In this document: piece after piece, positions 4,495-14,861 of the stretch | Numbering within the stretch: the first letter of the stretch is position 1 | Layout of the letters: every line of letters starts with the position of its first letter | NCBI GenBank assembly: GCA_039679545.1 | Contig: JBDKUT010000114.1 | Coordinates: forward strand, 1 to 16,005 | Source: Thermotogota bacterium | GTDB lineage: Bacteria; Bipolaricaulota; Bipolaricaulia; UBA7950; UBA9294 | DNA length: 16,005 bases | Direction: 5' to 3' | Notes under the pieces: model-generated | Databases searched by the model: none | What the model saw: only the letters and a program-made list of their open reading frames with translations | What the model was told of the DNA's origin: nothing | Program-made: the position numbers and the translations under genes

Positions 4495-5577
4495 GTGAAC
4501 ACGAACCAAAGAGAGGGCGACCCCGCTTTCGACGCTTCCATTCTCGACGTACTGCGCACCGGCATCCGAATCACCCGCGGCAACCCGCGCCTCGCGCTGC
4601 GCGGAGTCCGTCTGCTCCGAAGCCAGCAGCGAGCCGCCCGATGCCGCAACCAACAAGAAACCCTCGGGCTTCACGTGCCTCCGTTCGTGATCTTCAGCGT
4701 CACAGGAGCCTGCAACCTCACCTGCGCCGGCTGCTACGCAAGCATCCTCCACCGCGCCGCTCGCCCGGAGATGGCCGACAAGCGAGTAGGATCTCTCTTT
4801 CGCGAGGCGCGAGACCTCGGCGTCTCCGTGATGCTCCTCGCCGGGGGAGAGCCGCTCCTGCGTCGTGAGCTGCTCGCCGACGTGCTGGCTGTACCCGAGA
4901 TCCTCTTCCTGCTCTTCACGAATGGCTCGCTACTCGACGACGCCGTCATCCGTACGCTGCGCGGCGCCTCCCACGTCATCCCTGTCCTGAGCGTCGAGGG
5001 CGGTGAGGAAGAAACCGACGCGCGCCGGGGCGCGGGAGCGTACGAGCGCGTCACGGCGGCCATGGCGAAGCTTCACGCCCGCCACATCGTCTTCGGAACC
5101 TCGACGACGCTCACGAGCGCCAACTTCGAAACGGCAACCAGCGAAGCATACGTGCGCGGCCTCGCCCACCGCGGCTGTCGGCTCTTCTACTACATCAACT
5201 ACGTCCCCGTCGAGCCGGGCACCGACAACCTCCAGCTCACACCGGACCAGGTCGCCGAGCTCGGGCGCCGGCTCACGCGGTATCGCCGGACCATGCCCGC
5301 CCTGTTCATCGCCTTCCCGAACGACGAGCTTGCCTTCGGCGGCTGCCTTGCTGCGGGAAAGGGGTTCCTCCACATCAACGCCTACGGCGACGTCGAGCCG
5401 TGCCCGTTCTCTCCCTACTCCGACTCGAACCTCCTTGCGGTCTCGTTCCGAGACGCCCTCGCATCCCCTCTTTTCCGCAAGATCCGCGCCGAGGAGATCA
5501 CGTTGGACGAGACGGACGGACGCTGCGCGCTGTGGAAGCGTCGGGAATGGGTCAAGGGACTCGTCGAGAAGCGCTGA
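4495..5577 (+). CDS. Radical SAM protein with C-terminal Twitch/SPASM-like domain
   Basis: CNLTCAGC (CxxxCxxC), GGEP, FTNG, SVEG...DARRG; GCLAAGKGFLHINAYGDVEPCPF...GRC; AAGGA before GTG start. Confidence 0.92.
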   Translation: MNTNQREGDPAFDASILDVLRTGIRITRGNPRLALRGVRLLRSQQRAARCRNQQETLGLHVPPFVIFSVTGACNLTCAGCYASILHRAARPEMADKRVGSLFREARDLGVSVMLLAGGEPLLRRELLADVLAVPEILFLLFTNGSLLDDAVIRTLRGASHVIPVLSVEGGEEETDARRGAGAYERVTAAMAKLHARHIVFGTSTTLTSANFETATSEAYVRGLAHRGCRLFYYINYVPVEPGTDNLQLTPDQVAELGRRLTRYRRTMPALFIAFPNDELAFGGCLAAGKGFLHINAYGDVEPCPFSPYSDSNLLAVSFRDALASPLFRKIRAEEITLDETDGRCALWKRREWVKGLVEKR

Positions 5578-5587
5578 ATTCAGAGTG

Positions 5588-5859
5588 CGCCTGTGCGTGG
5601 CTCCATCGAAGAGAGGCAAGAAGCGCTTCGCGAGTAGACAGCTCGGGCCAAGTAGACCTCTAACACCCGCAGAGGCCAGCTTACCGCTGCTCCCTTCCGG
5701 GCCTGACGGGGTTCGCCGACATGCGCCGCAGAGGGCTCGACCGTCAACGCCACTTGCTCGTGGACGGACCCTCCCGCCTTTCCCCTCCGGAAACCCTTCG
5801 GTTCCACTAGAGCGGGTTCTGGATGTAGGGGACCGCTAGCCCCCCACCTAGCACAGGCG
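5588..5859 (-). ncRNA. ffs: Signal recognition particle RNA, large bacterial type with Alu domain (about 272 nt)
   Basis: Helix-8 signature GAACCCCGTCAGGCCCGGAAGGGAGCAGCGGTAAGC (about 5679-5714); termini CGCCTGTGC / GCACAGGCG form a perfect 9-bp helix; complementary AGCGG / CCGCT in the 5' region fit the Alu loop-loop pseudoknot. Confidence 0.93.
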
Positions 5860-5860
5860 T

Positions 5861-5951
5861 TGGCGGAGGGGGCGGGATTTGAACCCGCGGTACCCACGAG
5901 GAGTACACCGGTTCTCCAAACCGGCGGCTTCGGCCGCTCACCCACCCCTCC
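5861..5951 (-). tRNA. tRNA-Ser(GGA), encoded CCA, long variable arm
   Basis: Acceptor GGAGGGG/CCCCTCC-G-CCA; anticodon arm CCGGT-TTGGAGA-ACCGG; variable arm GTAC...GTAC; T arm GCGGG-TTCAAAT-CCCGC. Confidence 0.97.
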
Positions 5952-6089: not shown

Positions 6090-6743
6090 ATGGCCGTTCG
6101 AAGAACCGATCCGTACATCTGGGTCACGTGGCTCACGAAGCTCCTCGCTGGCGAGAGTCAGTGCGAGTGGGCGGCGTGGTTCCGCGCCCACCACTCGGAC
6201 TACGACCGCCTGCCGAGCGACTTCGACCTCGCCGCCTGGACCGTCGAACACAACGAACTCGTCCAGCTTCGTCGCGAGCAGCTTCTCGACGAGGGGTGGC
6301 AGGTCTACGTCGAGGACGAGAATGCGTTCAAGCGAATCGGCAAGACGGGGATCGTCGTGTCCGGAAAGCCCGACATCCTCTCGCTCCGCGATGGCAAAGC
6401 CATCATCGAGGACTGCAAGACCGGGCGGCCGCGCACCTCGGACCAGCTGCAGGTTCTCGTGTACATGCTCCTGCTTCCCATCGGCAATCCCCGATGCACG
6501 GGAGTGAAGCTCTCCGGACGCGTCACGTATCGATCCGGTGCGATGGACATCCCGCTGACCTCGCTCGATGCCGTATTCCGCGCCAAGTTCGTCGAACTGG
6601 TGCAGCGCATCGGCGGAGAGAAGCCGCTCCCGAAGAACCCCGTCTGGTCGGAGTGCCACTGGTGCGACATCGGACCGGCCGACTGTCTGTACCGCGTCGA
6701 CCAGCCGCCCGAGTCCGCCGAGGCTCAGACGGACCTGTTCTGA
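6090..6743 (+). CDS. Solo Cas4-like / RecB-family PD-(D/E)xK nuclease with four putative Fe-S cysteines
   Basis: GKPD95, D108-C-K110, Q121xxxY125; Cys25 plus C189xxC192...C199; His54. Confidence 0.88.
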   Translation: MAVRRTDPYIWVTWLTKLLAGESQCEWAAWFRAHHSDYDRLPSDFDLAAWTVEHNELVQLRREQLLDEGWQVYVEDENAFKRIGKTGIVVSGKPDILSLRDGKAIIEDCKTGRPRTSDQLQVLVYMLLLPIGNPRCTGVKLSGRVTYRSGAMDIPLTSLDAVFRAKFVELVQRIGGEKPLPKNPVWSECHWCDIGPADCLYRVDQPPESAEAQTDLF

Positions 6744-6763: not shown

Positions 6764-6792
6764 TTGACATACGCCCGGCAACGCCGTAGCCT
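6764..6792 (+). promoter_or_regulatory. sigma70 promoter of the Rrf2 gene
   Basis: Consensus TTGACA-N17-TAGCCT; ATG 14 nt after the -10 box, no SD. Confidence 0.7.
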
Positions 6793-6806: not shown

Positions 6807-7226
6807 ATGATTTACTCCAAGACCGCCAAGTACGCCGTCCTTGCACTCGCCGAAGTCTCCCTCCGTTCCCACGGCGACTACGTCTCGACCCGCGAGATTG
6901 CCGACGTCGCTTCCATTCCGTATCCCCACTTCGCGAAGACCATCGCGCTTCTCAAGCGGGCCGGGCTGATCGCAACGTCCCGCGGCAAGACGGGCGGCAT
7001 CCTCCTTGCCTGCCCGGCCAAGGACATCACTGTGCTCGATGTCGTCATCGCCGTTGACGGCCCCGACACGCTGAACGACTGTCCCCTTTTCCTCGAATCG
7101 TGCGATTGCACCCGAACCTGTTCGCTGCACGGATTGTGGCGTGAGGCGCACGACGCCGTCGTCGCCTTCCTGAAGCAAACCACCATCGCTGACGTCGCCG
7201 CAGCCCGCGCGAGCGTCGTCTCCTAA
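6807..7226 (+). CDS. Rrf2-family transcriptional regulator, Fe-S ligand type (IscR-like spacing)
   Basis: SKTAKYAVLAL...EIA...SRGKTGGILL...ITVLDVV; C92, C99, C101, C105, H108; FLKQTTIADV. Confidence 0.95.
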   Translation: MIYSKTAKYAVLALAEVSLRSHGDYVSTREIADVASIPYPHFAKTIALLKRAGLIATSRGKTGGILLACPAKDITVLDVVIAVDGPDTLNDCPLFLESCDCTRTCSLHGLWREAHDAVVAFLKQTTIADVAAARASVVS

Positions 7227-7280
7227 GATTCCTGGCACCCTCTCCACACCTTCTTCACGGGAAGGAACTACTGTCGCTCG

Positions 7281-7320
7281 TATATTGGACATTCTGCCCC
7301 AAATATCCATATCGTGGGGC
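7281..7320 (+). promoter_or_regulatory. Putative promoter/operator of the envelope operon
   Basis: AT-rich patch; TGGACA-N18-TATCGT; imperfect dyad ATATTGGACA-TTC-TGCCCCAAAT and second dyad GCCCCA...TGGGGC. Confidence 0.45.
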
Positions 7321-7361
7321 TACGATGCCGGCGGCGAAATGCCATCCGTGAAAGGTGAAGC

Positions 7362-8342
7362 ATGCAGATGAGAAAGACCGTGGCGTCTCTGATTGTGCTC
7401 ATGATCGGCATCCCTTTGAGCCTCGGGATCGCTCTGGGAAACGCAGAAGGTGCGGAGGGTATCGCCCTCCCCAACGAGGGAGGATCCTGGGCCCTCGCAT
7501 CGGTGATGCGCACCGACCCACCCCCGACACAGTCGGGAACGCTCGAGATTCGCGGCGTCGGTACGTTCACGTACGACCCGGCGGTCGTAGAGACGTTGCG
7601 GCCCGACGTGTTTGCGAAGGGTCGGTTCTCGGCCTTCGACGTCCTCGCTGCGCTTGCGGCAGCGGGCAAGGTCGATGTCCACTACGTGTATGACGAGAGC
7701 CAGGCTACGTATGTGATCCAGTCGATCGATGGGCTCACCGGGTGGTGGTACGACGTCCGCCTTCCCGGAGGCGCCTTCGAGCGAACGGTTCTCCGGATGG
7801 ACACGTACCCCATCAAGAACGGAGCGGAGGTCTACCTCTACCTCGAGGACCCGGCCAGGCTCGCGGCGATCGAATCGAGCTTCCAAGAGGAAGTCGCGCT
7901 CCGCGCGGCGAACGGCGGCCGGATCATCGTTCCGACGGTCACGATCAAGGGACCAAGGTCCACCGTGACCTTCCGCGACCTCGTTGTGACGTCCCACAAC
8001 GTCCGCCCCGATGTCTTTCGGCCGGGCGCAATCACCACGCTCGACGTCCTCTTGAGCCTTGGCGAGCAAGGGCGGATCTCCGGTCTTGAATTGGCTTGGC
8101 ACGCCGCGCTCGGCGACGTGTCCAACGTGAATCACTACATGGTCGATTGGATCTCGCTTCCCGGCGTCCTCGGAGAGAAGGACTCGCTCTGCGGCTACAT
8201 GGACGAAGCGGCAACGGAGGGGCTGCGGGGCTTCCTCACGCCGCACTCGCACGCCACGACACAGATCCACCTCTCGTCCGACCTCGAGTTCCTCGTGTCT
8301 CCCGGGTACGTCGAGTGGCAGTGGCTGTGCGCAACCCCGTAG
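7362..8342 (+). CDS. Secreted protein with two internally repeated domains, DUF4430/transcobalamin-beta-like
   Basis: Signal peptide MQMRKTVASLIVLMIGIPLSLGIALG; repeats RPDVFAKGRFSAFDVLAAL and RPDVFRPGAITTLDVLLSL; YVIQSIDGLTGWWYDV. CDS is solid, fold call tentative. Confidence 0.7.
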   Translation: MQMRKTVASLIVLMIGIPLSLGIALGNAEGAEGIALPNEGGSWALASVMRTDPPPTQSGTLEIRGVGTFTYDPAVVETLRPDVFAKGRFSAFDVLAALAAAGKVDVHYVYDESQATYVIQSIDGLTGWWYDVRLPGGAFERTVLRMDTYPIKNGAEVYLYLEDPARLAAIESSFQEEVALRAANGGRIIVPTVTIKGPRSTVTFRDLVVTSHNVRPDVFRPGAITTLDVLLSLGEQGRISGLELAWHAALGDVSNVNHYMVDWISLPGVLGEKDSLCGYMDEAATEGLRGFLTPHSHATTQIHLSSDLEFLVSPGYVEWQWLCATP

Positions 8343-8379
8343 TCGCGCCGGGCACCGTCTCAACAAGGAAGGGTGAGGT

Positions 8380-9498
8380 ATGAACTGGATCCTACGTGCG
8401 AACCTCAAGCGCAGGAAGGCACGACTTGCGTTGACGATCGGAGGGATTGCAGTCGGCGTTGCGACGCTGTTTGCCCTGCTCTCCTTCAGCGCCGGCATCG
8501 CCACAGCGCTCGAGCGCGAGCTCGACAGCCTCGGCGCTCATATCATCATTCTCCCAGTCGGCTGCCCGTACTCGCTCACGCTCGCTCTCATGCAAGGAGC
8601 CGACACGATCGAGTACATCGACGAGGCCTCGCTGGCTGAGTTCCGAGCGGTGAGCAATGTCGAGGTCGCCGCGCCGGCCGTGGTCGGCCGCGCCAAGGTA
8701 AACGGCACGCTCCTACCGATCTACGGCACCGATATCGAAACCGCCGCGCTTAAGCACTGGGACCTCACAACGTTCGACGGAGCGGTAATCGGCAGCAAGG
8801 CGGCCGCGGATCTCGGACTCTCCGTCGGCGACACCATCACGGTCAGCCTCTACGCTCCGATCACCATCGCGGTGACCAAGGTCCTGCCGGTGACCGGCGG
8901 GCGCGACGACACGTTCGTCTTCCTGCCGCTCGCCGAGGCCCAGCAGGTTCTGGCGCTGAACGGCAAGCTGTCGGCCGTGCTCGTGCGAACAGCCGACGTG
9001 TCCCGCGTCTCGGAGACGCGGAGCTTGCTCGGCCACATGATGGGCGTCCAGGCGGTCCCGCCGAACGAGGTCTTCGACACGCTCGTCGGCATCCTCGCCA
9101 CGGTGAGGCAGACGATGATCCTCATCGCCGGGATTGCGATCGCTGTCGGTGTCTTCACCACCATGAATACCATGATCATGTCGGTGCAGGAGCGCCGGCG
9201 CGACATCGGCCTCCTTCGCGCCGTCGGAGCGACTCGGCGCGAGGTGTTCAACCTCTTCCTGTATGAGTCGGTGACCGTGTCGGCGATCGGCGGACTCGTC
9301 GGGCTCGGCGCCGGGTACGTCGCTACGCTCCTCTTGCCCCGAGCGAGCGGCCTCGGCCTCGAAGCCCTGCCGCAGTACTCGCTTGCGTTCATCGGGATCT
9401 GCCTCGGCGTCGCGATCGCCGTCGGCACGGTCGCGGCGCTCTATCCGGCCATGATGGCCACGCGCGTGCAGCCGATCCGCGCACTGAGGGAATTATGA
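8380..9498 (+). CDS. MacB/FtsX-type (type VII) ABC transporter permease
   Basis: RRKARLALTIGGIAVGVA TM1, large extracytoplasmic domain with VGCPY, SVQERRRDIGLLRAVGA motif, terminal LYPA...QPIRALR. Confidence 0.93.
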   Translation: MNWILRANLKRRKARLALTIGGIAVGVATLFALLSFSAGIATALERELDSLGAHIIILPVGCPYSLTLALMQGADTIEYIDEASLAEFRAVSNVEVAAPAVVGRAKVNGTLLPIYGTDIETAALKHWDLTTFDGAVIGSKAAADLGLSVGDTITVSLYAPITIAVTKVLPVTGGRDDTFVFLPLAEAQQVLALNGKLSAVLVRTADVSRVSETRSLLGHMMGVQAVPPNEVFDTLVGILATVRQTMILIAGIAIAVGVFTTMNTMIMSVQERRRDIGLLRAVGATRREVFNLFLYESVTVSAIGGLVGLGAGYVATLLLPRASGLGLEALPQYSLAFIGICLGVAIAVGTVAALYPAMMATRVQPIRALREL

Positions 9499-10151
9499 TC
9501 GTCGAGCTGATCAGGGTTTCGAAGGAGTACGGCCAGAGGACGCGCTTCGTGGCCGTCCGCGACATCGACCTCTGCGTGACCACGGGCGACTTCCTCTCGA
9601 TCGTCGGTCCATCCGGATCCGGGAAGTCGTCTCTCCTGCATCTCGTCGGTTGCCTCGACCGCCCCACCTCGGGTTCGGTGCGGGTCGACGGAGAGCCGGT
9701 CGATCGGTTGTCCGACGCTGAGCTGAGCCACGTGCGACGGGAGCGGATCGGCTTCGTATTCCAGCAGTTCTACCTCAACGACGCGATGACCGCGCGGCAG
9801 AACGTTCTCCTTCCGCTCGAGCTGGCCCACGTGAAAGGGCGCCAGGAGCTCGCCCGCGCGGCACTCGCCGACGTCGGACTGTACGGCAAAGAAAAGAGTT
9901 ACCCGTCGCAGCTCTCAGGCGGAGAGCAGCAGCGCTGCGCGGTCGCGCGCGCTCTCGTGAACTCCCCCGAGCTGTTGCTCGCGGACGAGCCGACGGGCAG
10001 CCTGGATTCTCAATCCGGCAAGAACATCCTGCAGCTGATGGAACGTCTCCGCGACGCGCGCGGCCTCGCGCTCGTCATCGTCACGCACGATCCGACGGTC
10101 GCCGCTCGCGCGAAAACGCACATTTCAATTCAAGACGGGAGGATCGCATGA
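9495..10151 (+). CDS. ABC transporter ATP-binding protein (LolD/MacB family)
   Basis: [40 protein letters not shown] overlap with the permease stop. Confidence 0.96.
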
Positions 10152-10705
10152 AGGACGTTGGAGTCTGGATTCTCGTTGGATTGGCGGTCGTCGGCGTCGG
10201 ACTCGCCAGCGCCTGGGGCCTCGGCGCGTTCGGAACGCGATCCACCGCGGTTGCGCAGTCAGCCCCGGCAGCCGCTCCGGCCCCACAGCCTGCCAAGGGG
10301 AACGGTGCCCCCGTTCCCGCGTCGGCCGTCGTCCAAGCTTCGACGTCCGTAGAGCCGGTACAGGTTGTCGTTGCGGCGGCACAGGCTCCGACAGCACAGA
10401 CTCCAACGCCGTCGGACGCGATCGCCGACGTCACGATCTGGGATCTCATCCAAAAGGGATCGCCGTACGCCGGCCGCACAGTCCGCGTCCGTGGGACCAT
10501 CATCACGCAGTGCATGAGCGGGTGCGAGTTCGGCCTCGCCGACGACTCCGGCACCCTTTCCGTCCAACTCGTCGGCCCTGCCCTCGAACAGCTCGTTCCT
10601 TCCGGCAGCGTCGGGAAGAAGGCGGAAGCCATTGGAGTCCTCTCGACCGGCGATCGACCGCAGCTCATCGTCGACGACCCCGATCACTGGAAGATCCTGA
10701 ACTAG
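10148..10705 (+). CDS. Membrane-anchored/secreted OB-fold-like protein with CxxxC motif and Pro/Ala linker
   Basis: N-terminal hydrophobic helix, AP-rich linker, YAGRTVRVRGTIITQCMSGCEFGLADDSGTLSV; ATGA overlap with the ATPase stop. Confidence 0.75.
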   Translation: MKDVGVWILVGLAVVGVGLASAWGLGAFGTRSTAVAQSAPAAAPAPQPAKGNGAPVPASAVVQASTSVEPVQVVVAAAQAPTAQTPTPSDAIADVTIWDLIQKGSPYAGRTVRVRGTIITQCMSGCEFGLADDSGTLSVQLVGPALEQLVPSGSVGKKAEAIGVLSTGDRPQLIVDDPDHWKILN

Positions 10706-10816
10706 AGGCGCTTCCGGAGCACCTCGGACTCCGGCGGCGCGAACCGCCCACAGGAACTTCGCGGCGGGTCGCCAGCGGACAGGCACGAAGAACCGATGGA
10801 AGAGAGGGGGAGAAGA

Positions 10817-11245
10817 ATGATTCGAAGGCTGGCGGAAAAGCAAGTCCTGCTCGCTCTTGCCCTCCTTGCCGTCCTCACGGCGGCCCAAGGCTGCGGCATC
10901 CCCGCGGTCACGACGCCAGGCACCGAATCCGTCGCCGAGGTCCAAGTGACGGAGGATCCGAAGGGTGGACTCTACATCACAAAGCTCTCCTGCACGTTCC
11001 AAGTGGTCACGGTGAGCGGCGGCGCCCTAGCGGTGCCCGCCACGCTCCGTGTGAAGTGGGTCGCCGCGTGCGGTGTCCACAAGACCGAGACCTTCCAGTT
11101 CACTGGAGGTGAGCAGATTTACATGACCATGTACTTGGAAGCCGGCGGATCCTACATTGCAAAGACGTTGTGGGTTGAGATCACGTGGGAAGATGCCGAA
11201 GGCAGTCACCGAATCGAGAGCGCCGTCGCAGAGTGCTCCATCTAG
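10817..11245 (+). CDS. Probable lipoprotein of unknown function
   Basis: MIRRLAEKQVLLALALLAVLTAAQGC (non-canonical lipobox); purine-rich SD upstream; beta-strand-rich body with three more Cys. Confidence 0.7.
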   Translation: MIRRLAEKQVLLALALLAVLTAAQGCGIPAVTTPGTESVAEVQVTEDPKGGLYITKLSCTFQVVTVSGGALAVPATLRVKWVAACGVHKTETFQFTGGEQIYMTMYLEAGGSYIAKTLWVEITWEDAEGSHRIESAVAECSI

Positions 11246-11338
11246 CCCCGCAGCCGACCTAGGCCCACGAACCTCGCACGCGCCGTTTGCCCCTTGTACG
11301 ATGGACGGAAGACGACAGCTCGACAGCGGAGGCGCGGA

Positions 11339-12442
11339 TTGGACAAGGAACCGGCGCAGATGAGTTCACCTGTTGGCGCCCGCACGACGATCAACGGGCG
11401 CGAGGTCGATTACTTCTGCGGCACGAGCTACTACGGCCTGCACGGTCACCCACAGGTGATTGCCGCGGCGCGTGAAGCGCTTGCGGCGTATGGCGTCGGA
11501 ACGGCAACCGCCGCGTGGACGCCGGCACACGCCGAGGTTGTCGAGCGGGCGGGTCGCTTCCTCGGAACCGAAACCGTCACCTACGTCGCTTCGGGGTACT
11601 TGGCGCCGCTCGTCCTCTTCCAAGCGCTCTCCCAGGATTACGACGTCGCCTTTGCCGACGACGCCTCCCACTACGGCGTTCTCGACGCCCTGAGAGCGGT
11701 CGGCAAGGACGTTGTCCCATTCCGCCACCTCGACCCCGACGACCTCGCGCGTCAACTCACGATGAGCGGCCGCGCTGGCAGAAGATCTCTCGTGGTCACC
11801 GACGGCGTCTTCCCGTCAACCGGGGCCATCGCTCCGCTCTCAATCTACGTCGACACCCTCCGACGTCATCCCGACGCCATCCTCTGTGTCGATGACGCCC
11901 ACGGCCTCGGCGTCATCGGCACGAACGGGCGAGGCAGCCTCGAGTACCACGGCGTCGAGAAGAACGGTGCGCGCTTCTGCGGCACGCTGAGCAAAGCGTT
12001 CGGCGGCGCCGGCGGCATCGTCCCTGGAGACCACGCCCTGGCGACGCGGATTCGTCAGGCGTCGCGCGTCCCCCGCGGTGCTTCGGCTCCCTCGGTGCCG
12101 GCAGCCGCGGCCTCTGCCGCAGGCGTGCGCATCCTCGCCGAGCACCCTGAGATGCGGCAGCAGCTCTGGAACAACGTCCGACGCGTGAAGTCCGGTCTGC
12201 GTGCGCTCGGCTTCGACCTCGCCGATACGCCCGTTCCGATCGTCAGCCTCCGGGGACGCCCATCGATCGATCTCCTCCGCGTCCGAGAGACGCTCGAGCG
12301 GCAGGGCATCCTCGTCCACCACTCGCCTCCGCATGGCTACTCGGATTCTCCCGATGTCGAGACTCTCCGCATTGCCATCTTCTCGACCCACACGCCGGAG
12401 CAGATCGACCGACTCGTCGACGCCGTCCGCCGCGCGGCCTGA
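11339..12442 (+). CDS. PLP-dependent class II aminotransferase / alpha-oxoamine synthase (BioF/Kbl-like)
   Basis: YFCGTSYYGL, SGY, SHYG, TDGVF, DDAHG, GTLSKAFG (PLP lysine), LRIAI. Start TTG 11339 (GGAGG 6 nt upstream) or ATG 11360. Confidence 0.9.
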   Translation: MDKEPAQMSSPVGARTTINGREVDYFCGTSYYGLHGHPQVIAAAREALAAYGVGTATAAWTPAHAEVVERAGRFLGTETVTYVASGYLAPLVLFQALSQDYDVAFADDASHYGVLDALRAVGKDVVPFRHLDPDDLARQLTMSGRAGRRSLVVTDGVFPSTGAIAPLSIYVDTLRRHPDAILCVDDAHGLGVIGTNGRGSLEYHGVEKNGARFCGTLSKAFGGAGGIVPGDHALATRIRQASRVPRGASAPSVPAAAASAAGVRILAEHPEMRQQLWNNVRRVKSGLRALGFDLADTPVPIVSLRGRPSIDLLRVRETLERQGILVHHSPPHGYSDSPDVETLRIAIFSTHTPEQIDRLVDAVRRAA

Positions 12443-13359: not shown

Positions 13360-14161
13360 CCGACTGTGGCTTCGTCGCCACCCAGATCATCTGGGAGCTG
13401 TCGTCCGACAAGGGCTCCCCGAAGAAGTCGCCGTACGTTGCGCGCACCTCAAGGCCGACGCGCGCTATCAGGTGCTCAACCTCGAAGCGGAAGAGGCAGT
13501 GCAAGCGAATCGGCCCCGTCTCGTGAGACTCAACCACGTGGCCGTTCTCGTCGAGTTCCTCCCATCGCGTCTCGCAGATCGCCGTCTGCGTCGAGCGCTC
13601 GTACCTCCACGCCCGCATGGCGCGTACCGCGCGCCCTGTCTTCGGCCGCCGGAACGTTTCCTCTTCTTCGAAGACGCCGCCCTTCGCCCTCACGAGGTCG
13701 CCAAGCCACGCCATGTCCTGGTGGTCGAGATGAACGATGAGGGTGCCGCCCGGAGCGAGGTGCCGCTTCACGCAGGACAGGCACGCGACTTGATCGTCCG
13801 GCGTCAGAAGGTTATGGAACGCGTGACCTGGGATCAGGATGAGTCCGAACGTGCGCTCGAGGTCGAACGACCGCATGTCGGCCTCGACCCACGAGACGTT
13901 CGGAACGTCCACGCTCTTCTCCCGCGCGGCCTCGAGCATGGCGCTCGACAGGTCCAGCCCCACGACCTTGGCTCCCGCCCGCGCCAGCCGAAGAGCCACG
14001 CGCCCCGTACCGCAGGCGAGTTCGAGCACCACTTCGCCGCACGTCTTCGCCCAGTCGGCCGCGTCGAGGTAGAAGCTGATTTCGCCCGGCCAGTCCGGCA
14101 CCGCGGCGTCGTACGTCTCCGCGTAGTACCCCCGATCGAGGCTGATCCCTTCGTCATCCAC
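13352..14161 (-). CDS. Class I SAM-dependent methyltransferase
   Basis: YAETYD, VLELACGTGR, GLDLSSAML, ADMRSF, HLAPGG; GTG start overlaps the ferredoxin stop. Confidence 0.93.
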   Translation of the reverse strand: MDDEGISLDRGYYAETYDAAVPDWPGEISFYLDAADWAKTCGEVVLELACGTGRVALRLARAGAKVVGLDLSSAMLEAAREKSVDVPNVSWVEADMRSFDLERTFGLILIPGHAFHNLLTPDDQVACLSCVKRHLAPGGTLIVHLDHQDMAWLGDLVRAKGGVFEEEETFRRPKTGRAVRAMRAWRYERSTQTAICETRWEELDENGHVVESHETGPIRLHCLFRFEVEHLIARVGLEVRATYGDFFGEPLSDDSSQMIWVATKPQSVT

Positions 14162-14819
14162 GCGATCGCCCCTCGTGGCTCTTGGAGCCCGCGGCTCGCT
14201 TCACGAGTTCGATCGCCCCGGACGGGCACGTGCTAACGCAGAGGCCGCACCCGAAGCACTTCCCCTCCTCAAAGACCGCGTGGTCCGCGCTCGCGGTCAT
14301 CGTGAACGCTCCGAAGTGACACCGCTTCTCGCACTGCCCGCAGCCAACGCACGACCCCGCATCGAACCGCGCTATGTAGTTCGACTCCACAAACCCCTCG
14401 CGGAAGTCGCGTCCCCGCCAATCCTGGAACGGCCCGCAGCAGCACGAGCAACAGGAGCAGACGATGGTGACCTGTTCCCCAGGTTTGTGGTACGCCATGT
14501 GCACGAGTCCGGCGCGGTGCGACCTCTCCAGGACGTCAAGCGCCTCGTCGAGGGAGATCGGACGCCACCCGTCCTTGTCGATGCTCCGTCGCCCCTCGTC
14601 GTTGATGCCCAGGCACACCTCGAGCGGCCGGCCGCATGCGTCAGCCCTCTTGTCCCTGCGGCACATGCACTCGCCGACGGCGATCAGCTCCGCCCCCGCG
14701 AGGAGTTCACGCATCTCCGGCTGTGTAAGCACGACCTCGGTCGCCGTGATCTCCACGTGCATCGGGACCGTGTGTCCGATGTACTCCGTGGGCGTTCGTT
14801 CGCTTGTCTGATCCGACAT
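14154..14819 (-). CDS. Cys-rich protein with C-terminal 2x[4Fe-4S] ferredoxin domain
   Basis: CVGCGQCEKRC and CFGCGLCVSTCP; additional CMCR...C...C and CSCCSCCC. Start ATG 14819 (or GTG 14855). Confidence 0.92.
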   Translation of the reverse strand: MSDQTSERTPTEYIGHTVPMHVEITATEVVLTQPEMRELLAGAELIAVGECMCRRDKRADACGRPLEVCLGINDEGRRSIDKDGWRPISLDEALDVLERSHRAGLVHMAYHKPGEQVTIVCSCCSCCCGPFQDWRGRDFREGFVESNYIARFDAGSCVGCGQCEKRCHFGAFTMTASADHAVFEEGKCFGCGLCVSTCPSGAIELVKRAAGSKSHEGRSRG

Positions 14820-14861
14820 CCCGCTCCCTTCCAGATTGATGGGCTCCTCGCCCACGTCCGA

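Follow-up and report, generated by a model that had tools for sequence, protein, structure and literature searches.

A cysteine-bearing, apparently undescribed variant of type VII ABC transporters in Bipolaricaulota and its tentative link to reduced sulfur

Type VII ATP-binding cassette (ABC) transporters such as MacB, LolCDE, HrtBA and YtrEF share a four-transmembrane (TM) permease with a large extracytoplasmic domain and a LolD-like ATPase, and are known for export and for mechanical work outside the membrane, the substrate of several of them, for example FetBCD, being undefined. Cysteine-bearing systems of other kinds are also on record, and the accessible sections of the respective reports describe YeeE/YeeD (TsuA/TsuB) as having membrane cysteines at different depths and a small cysteine-bearing partner, tied to cysteine synthesis (PMC11073785), FetMP-FetABCDEF as combining ABC permease(s) and an ATPase with cysteine-bearing envelope partners and an undefined ABC substrate (PMC10783030), and the SAO selenoprotein system of anaerobes as an ABC transporter with Cys or Sec on the permease and on several envelope partners (10.1101/2022.07.06.499078). 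The locus analysed here lies in a stretch of 16,005 nucleotides (the window), which is positions 1 to 16,005 of contig JBDKUT010000114.1 in assembly GCA_039679545.1 of a bacterium placed in Bipolaricaulota. It holds six co-oriented open reading frames (ORFs; Table 1) encoding an Rrf2-family regulator, a secreted protein, a type VII permease, its ATPase, an OB-fold protein and a lipoprotein.

The permease and the ATPase are, by family assignment, members of the type VII ABC transporters. The AlphaFold2 (AF2) model of the permease matches LolE/MacB in Foldseek with E-values from 8.5e-21 to 1e-17, hydropathy places the TM helices at residues 14-45, 234-269, 300-320 and 329-360, TM1 being followed by a large extracytoplasmic domain, and the best NCBIfam models for the ATPase are LolD, MacB and FtsE. 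Compared with MacB, LolCDE, HrtBA and YtrEF, to which the permease is 16-22% identical, the locus differs by two conserved cysteines, a dedicated OB-fold partner with a CxxGC motif and the lack of an adaptor gene in the cluster. The first cysteine, C62, belongs to a GCP motif (GCPY) directly after TM1 on the extracytoplasmic side and is retained in 37/37 alignment rows, and the second, C341 in the last TM helix, is retained in 36 of 37 and had been overlooked in a preliminary description of the cluster. The OB-fold partner presents CMSGC (C122 and C126) after a 64-residue linker with 44% proline plus alanine. Because GCP is found in 22/22 permease relatives, and CxxGC in 19/19 OB relatives as well as invariantly across 37 cross-phylum rows, these cysteine motifs exceed chance. 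The ATPase gene overlaps both of its neighbours, the permease and OB genes, by 4 bp (ATGA), and no MacA-type adaptor family was matched in Pfam or NCBIfam among the six cluster proteins, a search that did not extend to the rest of the genome. On all these points, namely six same-strand genes of which the permease, ATPase and OB genes are joined by ATGA, a GCP early in the extracytoplasmic domain, CMSGC on a long Pro/Ala linker and a cluster without adaptor, the preliminary description agrees with the coordinates, alignments and family searches.

A profile search with the OB protein over 1.84 billion proteins gave 327 matches at E<=0.001, whose more distant members carry DUF4920, BOF and OB families, the DUF4920/BOF-like ones with the same motif. 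PF16267 does not match the window protein itself; several of its profile relatives exceed the cut-off of this model and share a Cys-x-Gly-Cys motif. For DUF4920, no papers were found in the literature searched. The OB profile matched 2 of 401 Chloroflexota and none of the five genomes holding a secreted protein unlinked to a transporter. Scanning metagenomes with the distant OB family returned 277 relatives, the best 80 of which were kept; 52 loci from these and two from a Chloroflexota search make up a set of 54, each 2.5 kb or longer, in which OB stands directly before the permease, a permease is present in 50 and an ATPase in 45, and in which neither the secreted gene nor thioredoxins were found. 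The cluster members outside the phylum belong to Dehalococcoidia/Chloroflexota and Methanoregula, and GCPY is present in all 31 of the permeases chosen there by pattern.

These distant loci are embedded among genes of sulfur use. A sulfur gene lies within 5 kb in 46/71 loci and in 35 of the 36 with at least 7 kb of coverage, as compared with 3.4% of random 10-kb windows of the source genome, counts that come from kin loci representing about four independent contexts and from a query set drawn from the same loci. Neighbours exceeding NCBIfam cut-offs are CysK, CysE, NifS, FdhD, Thi4, SAMP1, NadA and SepCysS, and further ones are cysteine desulfurases, MoeB/ThiF, SAMP/MoaD and a cystathionine lyase-type enzyme. 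tRNA-Cys is encoded in four of the six non-Bipolaricaulota loci scanned (L212, L213, L220 and L221; not L217 or L218). It has been reported that tRNA-Cys and sulfur genes accompany SepCysS genes (PMC5424206), and the available passages of that paper and the text of nine supplements mention no ABC, permease or transporter. In the Methanoregula-like locus L220, genes for a radical SAM protein and SepCysS lie next to the trio and are flanked by two tRNA-Cys(GCA) genes (5518-5589 and 6892-6963). Small genes with no Pfam or NCBIfam match recur next to the trio in Dehalococcoidia sulfur operons (L191 2888-3448 and 6937-7401; L145 5502-5960).

The closest relatives are found in Candidatus Bipolaricaulota, where 28 of 184 genomes were matched by the permease profile, 27 of them with a permease of the GCP type and one (G080) with a permease that has no cysteine; the secreted protein was matched in 34/184, including all 27 GCP-permease genomes. 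At class level, the permease profile matched 5/301, one of them without the GCP motif. Among 39 loci, 19 show the order secreted-permease-ATPase-OB, one has the secreted gene and permease only despite room, eight are cut by contig ends and 11 hold the secreted gene without a transporter. The proposal in the preliminary description of a six-gene module therefore had to be narrowed, as the lipoprotein gene is present in 8/19 complete loci and the window-type Rrf2 in two genera only. On this distribution the conserved unit is the permease, the ATPase and the CxxGC OB protein, with the secreted protein added in Bipolaricaulota, and the lipoprotein and window-type Rrf2 are local additions. Viral contigs gave just two weak generic matches, and plasmid records gave generic matches for the window permease and two records for a distant permease.

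Control of the module by an Rrf2 protein is likely. A putative Rrf2-type box, a 25-bp imperfect palindrome, overlaps the promoter of the operon. This sigma-70-like promoter probably starts a four- to five-gene operon. The palindrome pattern, which was written after inspecting the loci, occurs 5' of the secreted gene in 15/24 loci as compared with a shuffle mean of 0.3 and maximum of 3. The box of the window is the single strong match in the source genome, a scan with a position weight matrix (PWM) having given no second strong site. The box presumably resembles IscR-type operators. In the accessible text of PMC3828012, IscR and CymR motifs are described as alike. Palindromes situated 36-39 bp 5' of rrf2 recur in distant loci. 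The promoter-like site of rrf2 itself was not selected by a consensus promoter scan; its TTGACA and TAG hexamer are retained in all eight relatives displayed.

The regulator carries what appears to be an Fe-S-type Cys/His ligand set in its C-terminal linker. The residues conserved in its close clade are C92, C99, C101, C105 and H108, which corrects the earlier count of three cysteines and a histidine to four plus one, and the sections available of PMC11672702 state that IscR-type Rrf2 proteins sense Fe-S status. Equivalog scores stay under the cut-offs for IscR (67.5 vs 207.55) and CymR (49 vs 195). In a quick tree the window-type Rrf2 forms a distinct clade found directly upstream in 10 loci, all in the two closest genera, and other Rrf2 proteins with 28-30% identity adjoin the module in eight more loci. 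Two of these eight, just upstream of the module in L078 and L080, are orthologs of the cysK-linked Rrf2 on contig C5 of the source genome, and the latter is a candidate for a regulator of the window operon. On contig C5 (G000, about 12700-17000, minus strand), an rrf2-cysK-cysE-thiI-like cluster is followed by a heavy-metal P-type ATPase-like gene.

The secreted protein is modelled as two beta-grasp repeats (AF2 predicted local distance difference test score, pLDDT, 87; internal repeat E 2e-6). Its best Foldseek match is 5no0, the beta-domain of human transcobalamin, at E 5.6e-3 and prob 1.0; the DUF4430-type 3u7z is also among the matches, none of which reaches E<=0.001. The Atlas lead is DUF4430 at 0.85, Pfam DUF4430 is matched weakly by 2/35 domains (best E 0.09), and sequence searches of the PDB gave zero matches. 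Likeness to described families lies at the level of fold or remote profile, both for this protein (DUF4430/transcobalamin beta-domain) and for the OB protein (DUF4920/BOF), and neither passes the Pfam models. The tandem repeat and the C-terminal cysteine pair are new features compared with DUF4430 and transcobalamin beta-domains. The two cysteines, C277 and C323, which the preliminary description had overlooked, are present in 37/37 rows and are both absent in two more distant rows, L112 and P0097. Its claim of a His-rich tail holds for the presence of histidines (H295, H297 and H303; insert PHSH) and not for their richness, which is modest at three residues. The insert is found in 25/25 transporter-linked secreted proteins vs 0/22 unlinked ones, a count in which extraction skipped 10 loci; the transporter-linked copies form one clade and the insert arose once.

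In the unlinked clade, a DUF4405 gene directly follows the secreted gene in eight loci (L094, L095, L099-L101, L105, L111 and L113) and is fused to it in three proteins (P0076, P0090 and P0091). The DUF4405 partner has a cytochrome b561/ferric-reductase-like match, and this pair, seen in Chloroflexota, Bipolaricaulota and others, is a candidate for an undescribed envelope redox pair. The secreted domain is also fused to a CBM96-like domain in P0097 and P0101, both lacking the two cysteines, and in P0087 to a domain that looks by eye like a cupredoxin and has no Pfam match.

Because the Chloroflexota and methanogen relatives sit among sulfur-use genes, the module likely handles sulfur or thiols and not vitamin B12 or heme. 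The account favoured here, held tentatively and at somewhat less than an even chance, is that the permease, ATPase and CxxGC OB protein could be an Rrf2-repressed cysteine relay supplying reduced sulfur. A shortage of Fe-S or cysteine would release Rrf2 from the box that overlaps the promoter. The CxxGC of the OB protein, carried on the flexible linker, would take up sulfur of the sulfane or thiosulfate type and hand it to C62. Powered by ATP, the moving permease dimer would pass the sulfur on in the direction of C341 and then to the membrane or the cytoplasm, making it available to CysK, desulfurases and MoeB-type enzymes. In Bipolaricaulota the secreted protein, with its C277/C323 pair and His insert, might act as an additional scavenger on the outside or as a redox partner, and the lipoprotein might have an accessory role. 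Within this phylum the account is favoured by L084, which faces rrf2-cysK-moeB-sufS-cysE, by the orthologs of the cysK-linked Rrf2 upstream of the module in L078 and L080, by the Rrf2-like box in 15/24 loci and, weakly, by CysK, which exceeds its cut-off in 20 of the 27 genomes with the module and in 73 of the 157 others, all of them kin and not independent. YeeE/YeeD serves as the working model, since the window permease, like the YeeE relay outlined in the sections available (PMC11073785), has cysteines both on the outer side of the membrane and within it. The window permease differs from YeeE in its unrelated fold, its ATP drive and its two instead of three cysteines per chain, and its OB-fold partner is extracytoplasmic whereas YeeD is cytoplasmic and TusA-like; PF04143, the YeeE fold, matched neither the permease nor anything in the source genome. 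A wider version of the same account is possible but doubtful. It would make the module a type VII ABC importer in anaerobic bacteria and methanogens, with an ATP-driven relay from OB CxxGC through C62 to C341 scavenging sulfane or thiosulfate sulfur as a further sulfur-uptake route that gene transfer has spread between domains, and the sister versions beside hgcAB would have been put to a new use with mercury and other thiophilic metals.

Several observations weigh against a sulfur relay. Within Bipolaricaulota a sulfur gene lies within 5 kb in only 3/24 loci and in the window there is none; the window Rrf2 falls outside the cysK-linked clade, and on distant Dehalococcoidia loci the operator PWM did no better than shuffles. 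A CysK over the cut-off is missing from 7/27 module genomes. Full-length YeeE is found in 0/27 module genomes vs 8/157, an exclusion that is not significant (p=0.6), and split YeeE-like genes occur in five module genomes. The permease tree is a quick tree without a claimed root or donor, in which long branches meet; it puts the Bipolaricaulota permeases on one long branch and does not show them closer to sulfur-linked than to hgcAB/ArsR-linked rows. Sister permeases stand beside hgcAB, ArsR and DsbD/TlpA, importers are not known among type VII pumps, and type VII (MacB) is listed solely for export in the available part of the classification paper (PMC8386196).

The redox neighbours agree with an envelope thiol-redox function, in which the transporter would move cysteine or electrons outward to the CxxGC OB protein and then to the secreted C277/C323 pair. 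A scheme of this kind has been proposed for FetBCD and FetE/F, and a need for thiol to export would here explain the association with cysteine synthesis. The relay of reducing power predicted for FetBCD in the accessible text of PMC10783030, the DUF4405 genes next or fused to unlinked secreted homologues, the frequent proximity of such homologues to disulfide reductases and the joint loss of both secreted cysteines in L112 and P0097, as expected of a pair, all point this way, as do DsbD-type genes flanking the loci of family f3 and the genes following two plasmid-borne sister permeases led by ArsR/SmtB, DsbD-N in L236 (9756-14356, Massilia) and TlpA in L237 (3673-11397, Vibrio). Such a function is nevertheless unlikely, as neither the secreted protein nor thioredoxins occur in the loci of Dehalococcoidia and archaea, and export of thiol from within operons of sulfur-consuming enzymes, themselves likely induced by sulfur shortage, would be uneconomic. 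The same ArsR/SmtB-led sisters, of which L237 also has SMR and P-type ATPase genes, agree with handling of thiophilic metals, whereby the cysteines and His insert would bind Fe for Fe-S clusters or Hg, As, Cd or Cu, in support of uptake or for removal. In a single Chloroflexota locus (L238, 252-3308, minus strand), an OB-like gene and a GCP-type sister permease lie directly upstream of hgcA and hgcB, both exceeding NCBIfam cut-offs, with no ATPase between. Genes for FtrD-like (former DUF2318) Fe-S membrane proteins flank the module in L075 (2174-2515) and L084 (10782-11234), Acr3-like and thioredoxin-like genes are near L080 and f3 loci, and the constant His insert and the Fe-S sensing of IscR-type Rrf2 proteins would also fit. 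Metal handling is judged quite unlikely, since the sisters linked to metal genes carry another motif and are paired with an OB protein that lacks CxxGC, the His insert arose only once, and no FTR1, FeoB or metal exporter recurs among the 30 commonest neighbour clusters of CxxGC loci, which were inspected by eye and of which a subset was scanned. The fold of the secreted protein would suit corrinoid (or heme) capture, with cobalamin bound by the transcobalamin-beta-like domains and imported or released by the permease. This is very improbable given the marginal fold and DUF4430 scores, the existence of the core trio without the secreted protein, and searches that found no cobalamin riboswitch in either the window or 13 other loci and, among the scanned neighbours, no B12 gene other than that for the corrinoid protein HgcA next to a single sister permease. 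Hence, of the redox-regulated hand-off of a metal or cofactor suggested in the preliminary description, the conserved cysteines and the likely Rrf2 control stand, while metal or corrinoid cargo loses ground to the sulfur/cysteine context.

Membership was weighed and rejected for MacAB-TolC, LolCDE, Fet, SAO and YeeE/YeeD. MacAB-TolC is excluded by a MacB score of 54 bits vs a cut-off of 966 and by the lack of an adaptor family, and LolCDE by 92 bits vs 362 with the LolC/E model TIGR02212; the heme exporter HrtBA is a fold match to the permease at 16% identity. The locus resembles Fet in its cysteine-bearing envelope partners and in the FtrD/DUF2318-like gene beside two related loci; it has one permease and no FetB/FetC pair, and FetM (FTR1), FetP (P19), FetA and thioredoxin are missing among the window proteins. 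The SAO system is likewise rejected, with no Sao model matching the six proteins and SaoP being MetI-like with binding proteins in contrast to the type VII fold of the window permease. Homologues co-occur across genomes, the cysteines are conserved and no characterised transporter was matched, and a literature search, which covered mostly titles and abstract openings and few subscription papers, found no description of the trio; the locus thus represents a real variant of type VII ABC transporters that bears conserved cysteines and is apparently undescribed, as the preliminary description had surmised of its architecture. A cross-domain subfamily of this kind, with a CxxGC partner in sulfur operons, offers a test of whether the class imports or relays thiol chemistry, and would be a candidate route by which sediment anaerobes and methanogens gather scarce sulfur; the hgcAB-adjacent sister permease provides a lead on Hg-thiol handling by mercury methylators.

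Table 1. Features of the transporter locus, in positions of the window.
Feature	Coordinates	Strand	Basis
rrf2 promoter-like site	6764..6792	+	TTGACA, 17 nt, TAGCCT; short leader; read from sequence
Rrf2-family regulator	6807..7226	+	PF02082 E 2.7e-33; TIGR00738 over cut-off
Putative Rrf2 operator, 25-bp imperfect palindrome	7282..7306	+	Inferred from pattern
Sigma-70-like promoter	7286..7315	+	TGGACA-18-TATCGT; conserved in relatives; overlapped by putative operator
Secreted or N-anchored protein, two beta-grasp (DUF4430/transcobalamin-beta-like) repeats	7362..8342	+	AF2, Foldseek, Atlas, internal repeat
Type VII (MacB/LolE-like) ABC permease	8380..9498	+	PF12704 and PF02687; AF2; Foldseek to LolE/MacB
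LolD/MacB-type ABC ATPase	9495..10151	+	PF00005; best NCBIfam LolD, under cut-off
N-anchored OB-fold protein (DUF4920/BOF-like)	10148..10705	+	Profile search; invariant C, G, C
Lipoprotein, no known family	10817..11245	+	Conserved Cys and CGxHK; accessory

The lipoprotein has no match in Pfam or NCBIfam and Atlas leads all under 0.9, and its start is more likely at 10817 than at 10796 because a purine-rich ribosome site precedes the former. Upstream of rrf2, in the two closest genera only, lies a PD-(D/E)XK/Cas4-like nuclease gene (6090-6743, plus strand), and a BioF/Kbl-like pyridoxal phosphate enzyme (11294-12442, plus strand) follows the lipoprotein gene in close relatives only; both were rejected as members of the module, their synteny being confined to close relatives. 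Just upstream of the cluster flank, the minus strand encodes a large bacterial signal recognition particle RNA (5591-5856) and tRNA-Ser(GGA) (5861-5951). Elsewhere in the window, Fe-S proteins are represented by a ferredoxin-like protein (14154-14855, minus strand) and a radical SAM/SPASM protein (4495-5577, plus strand).

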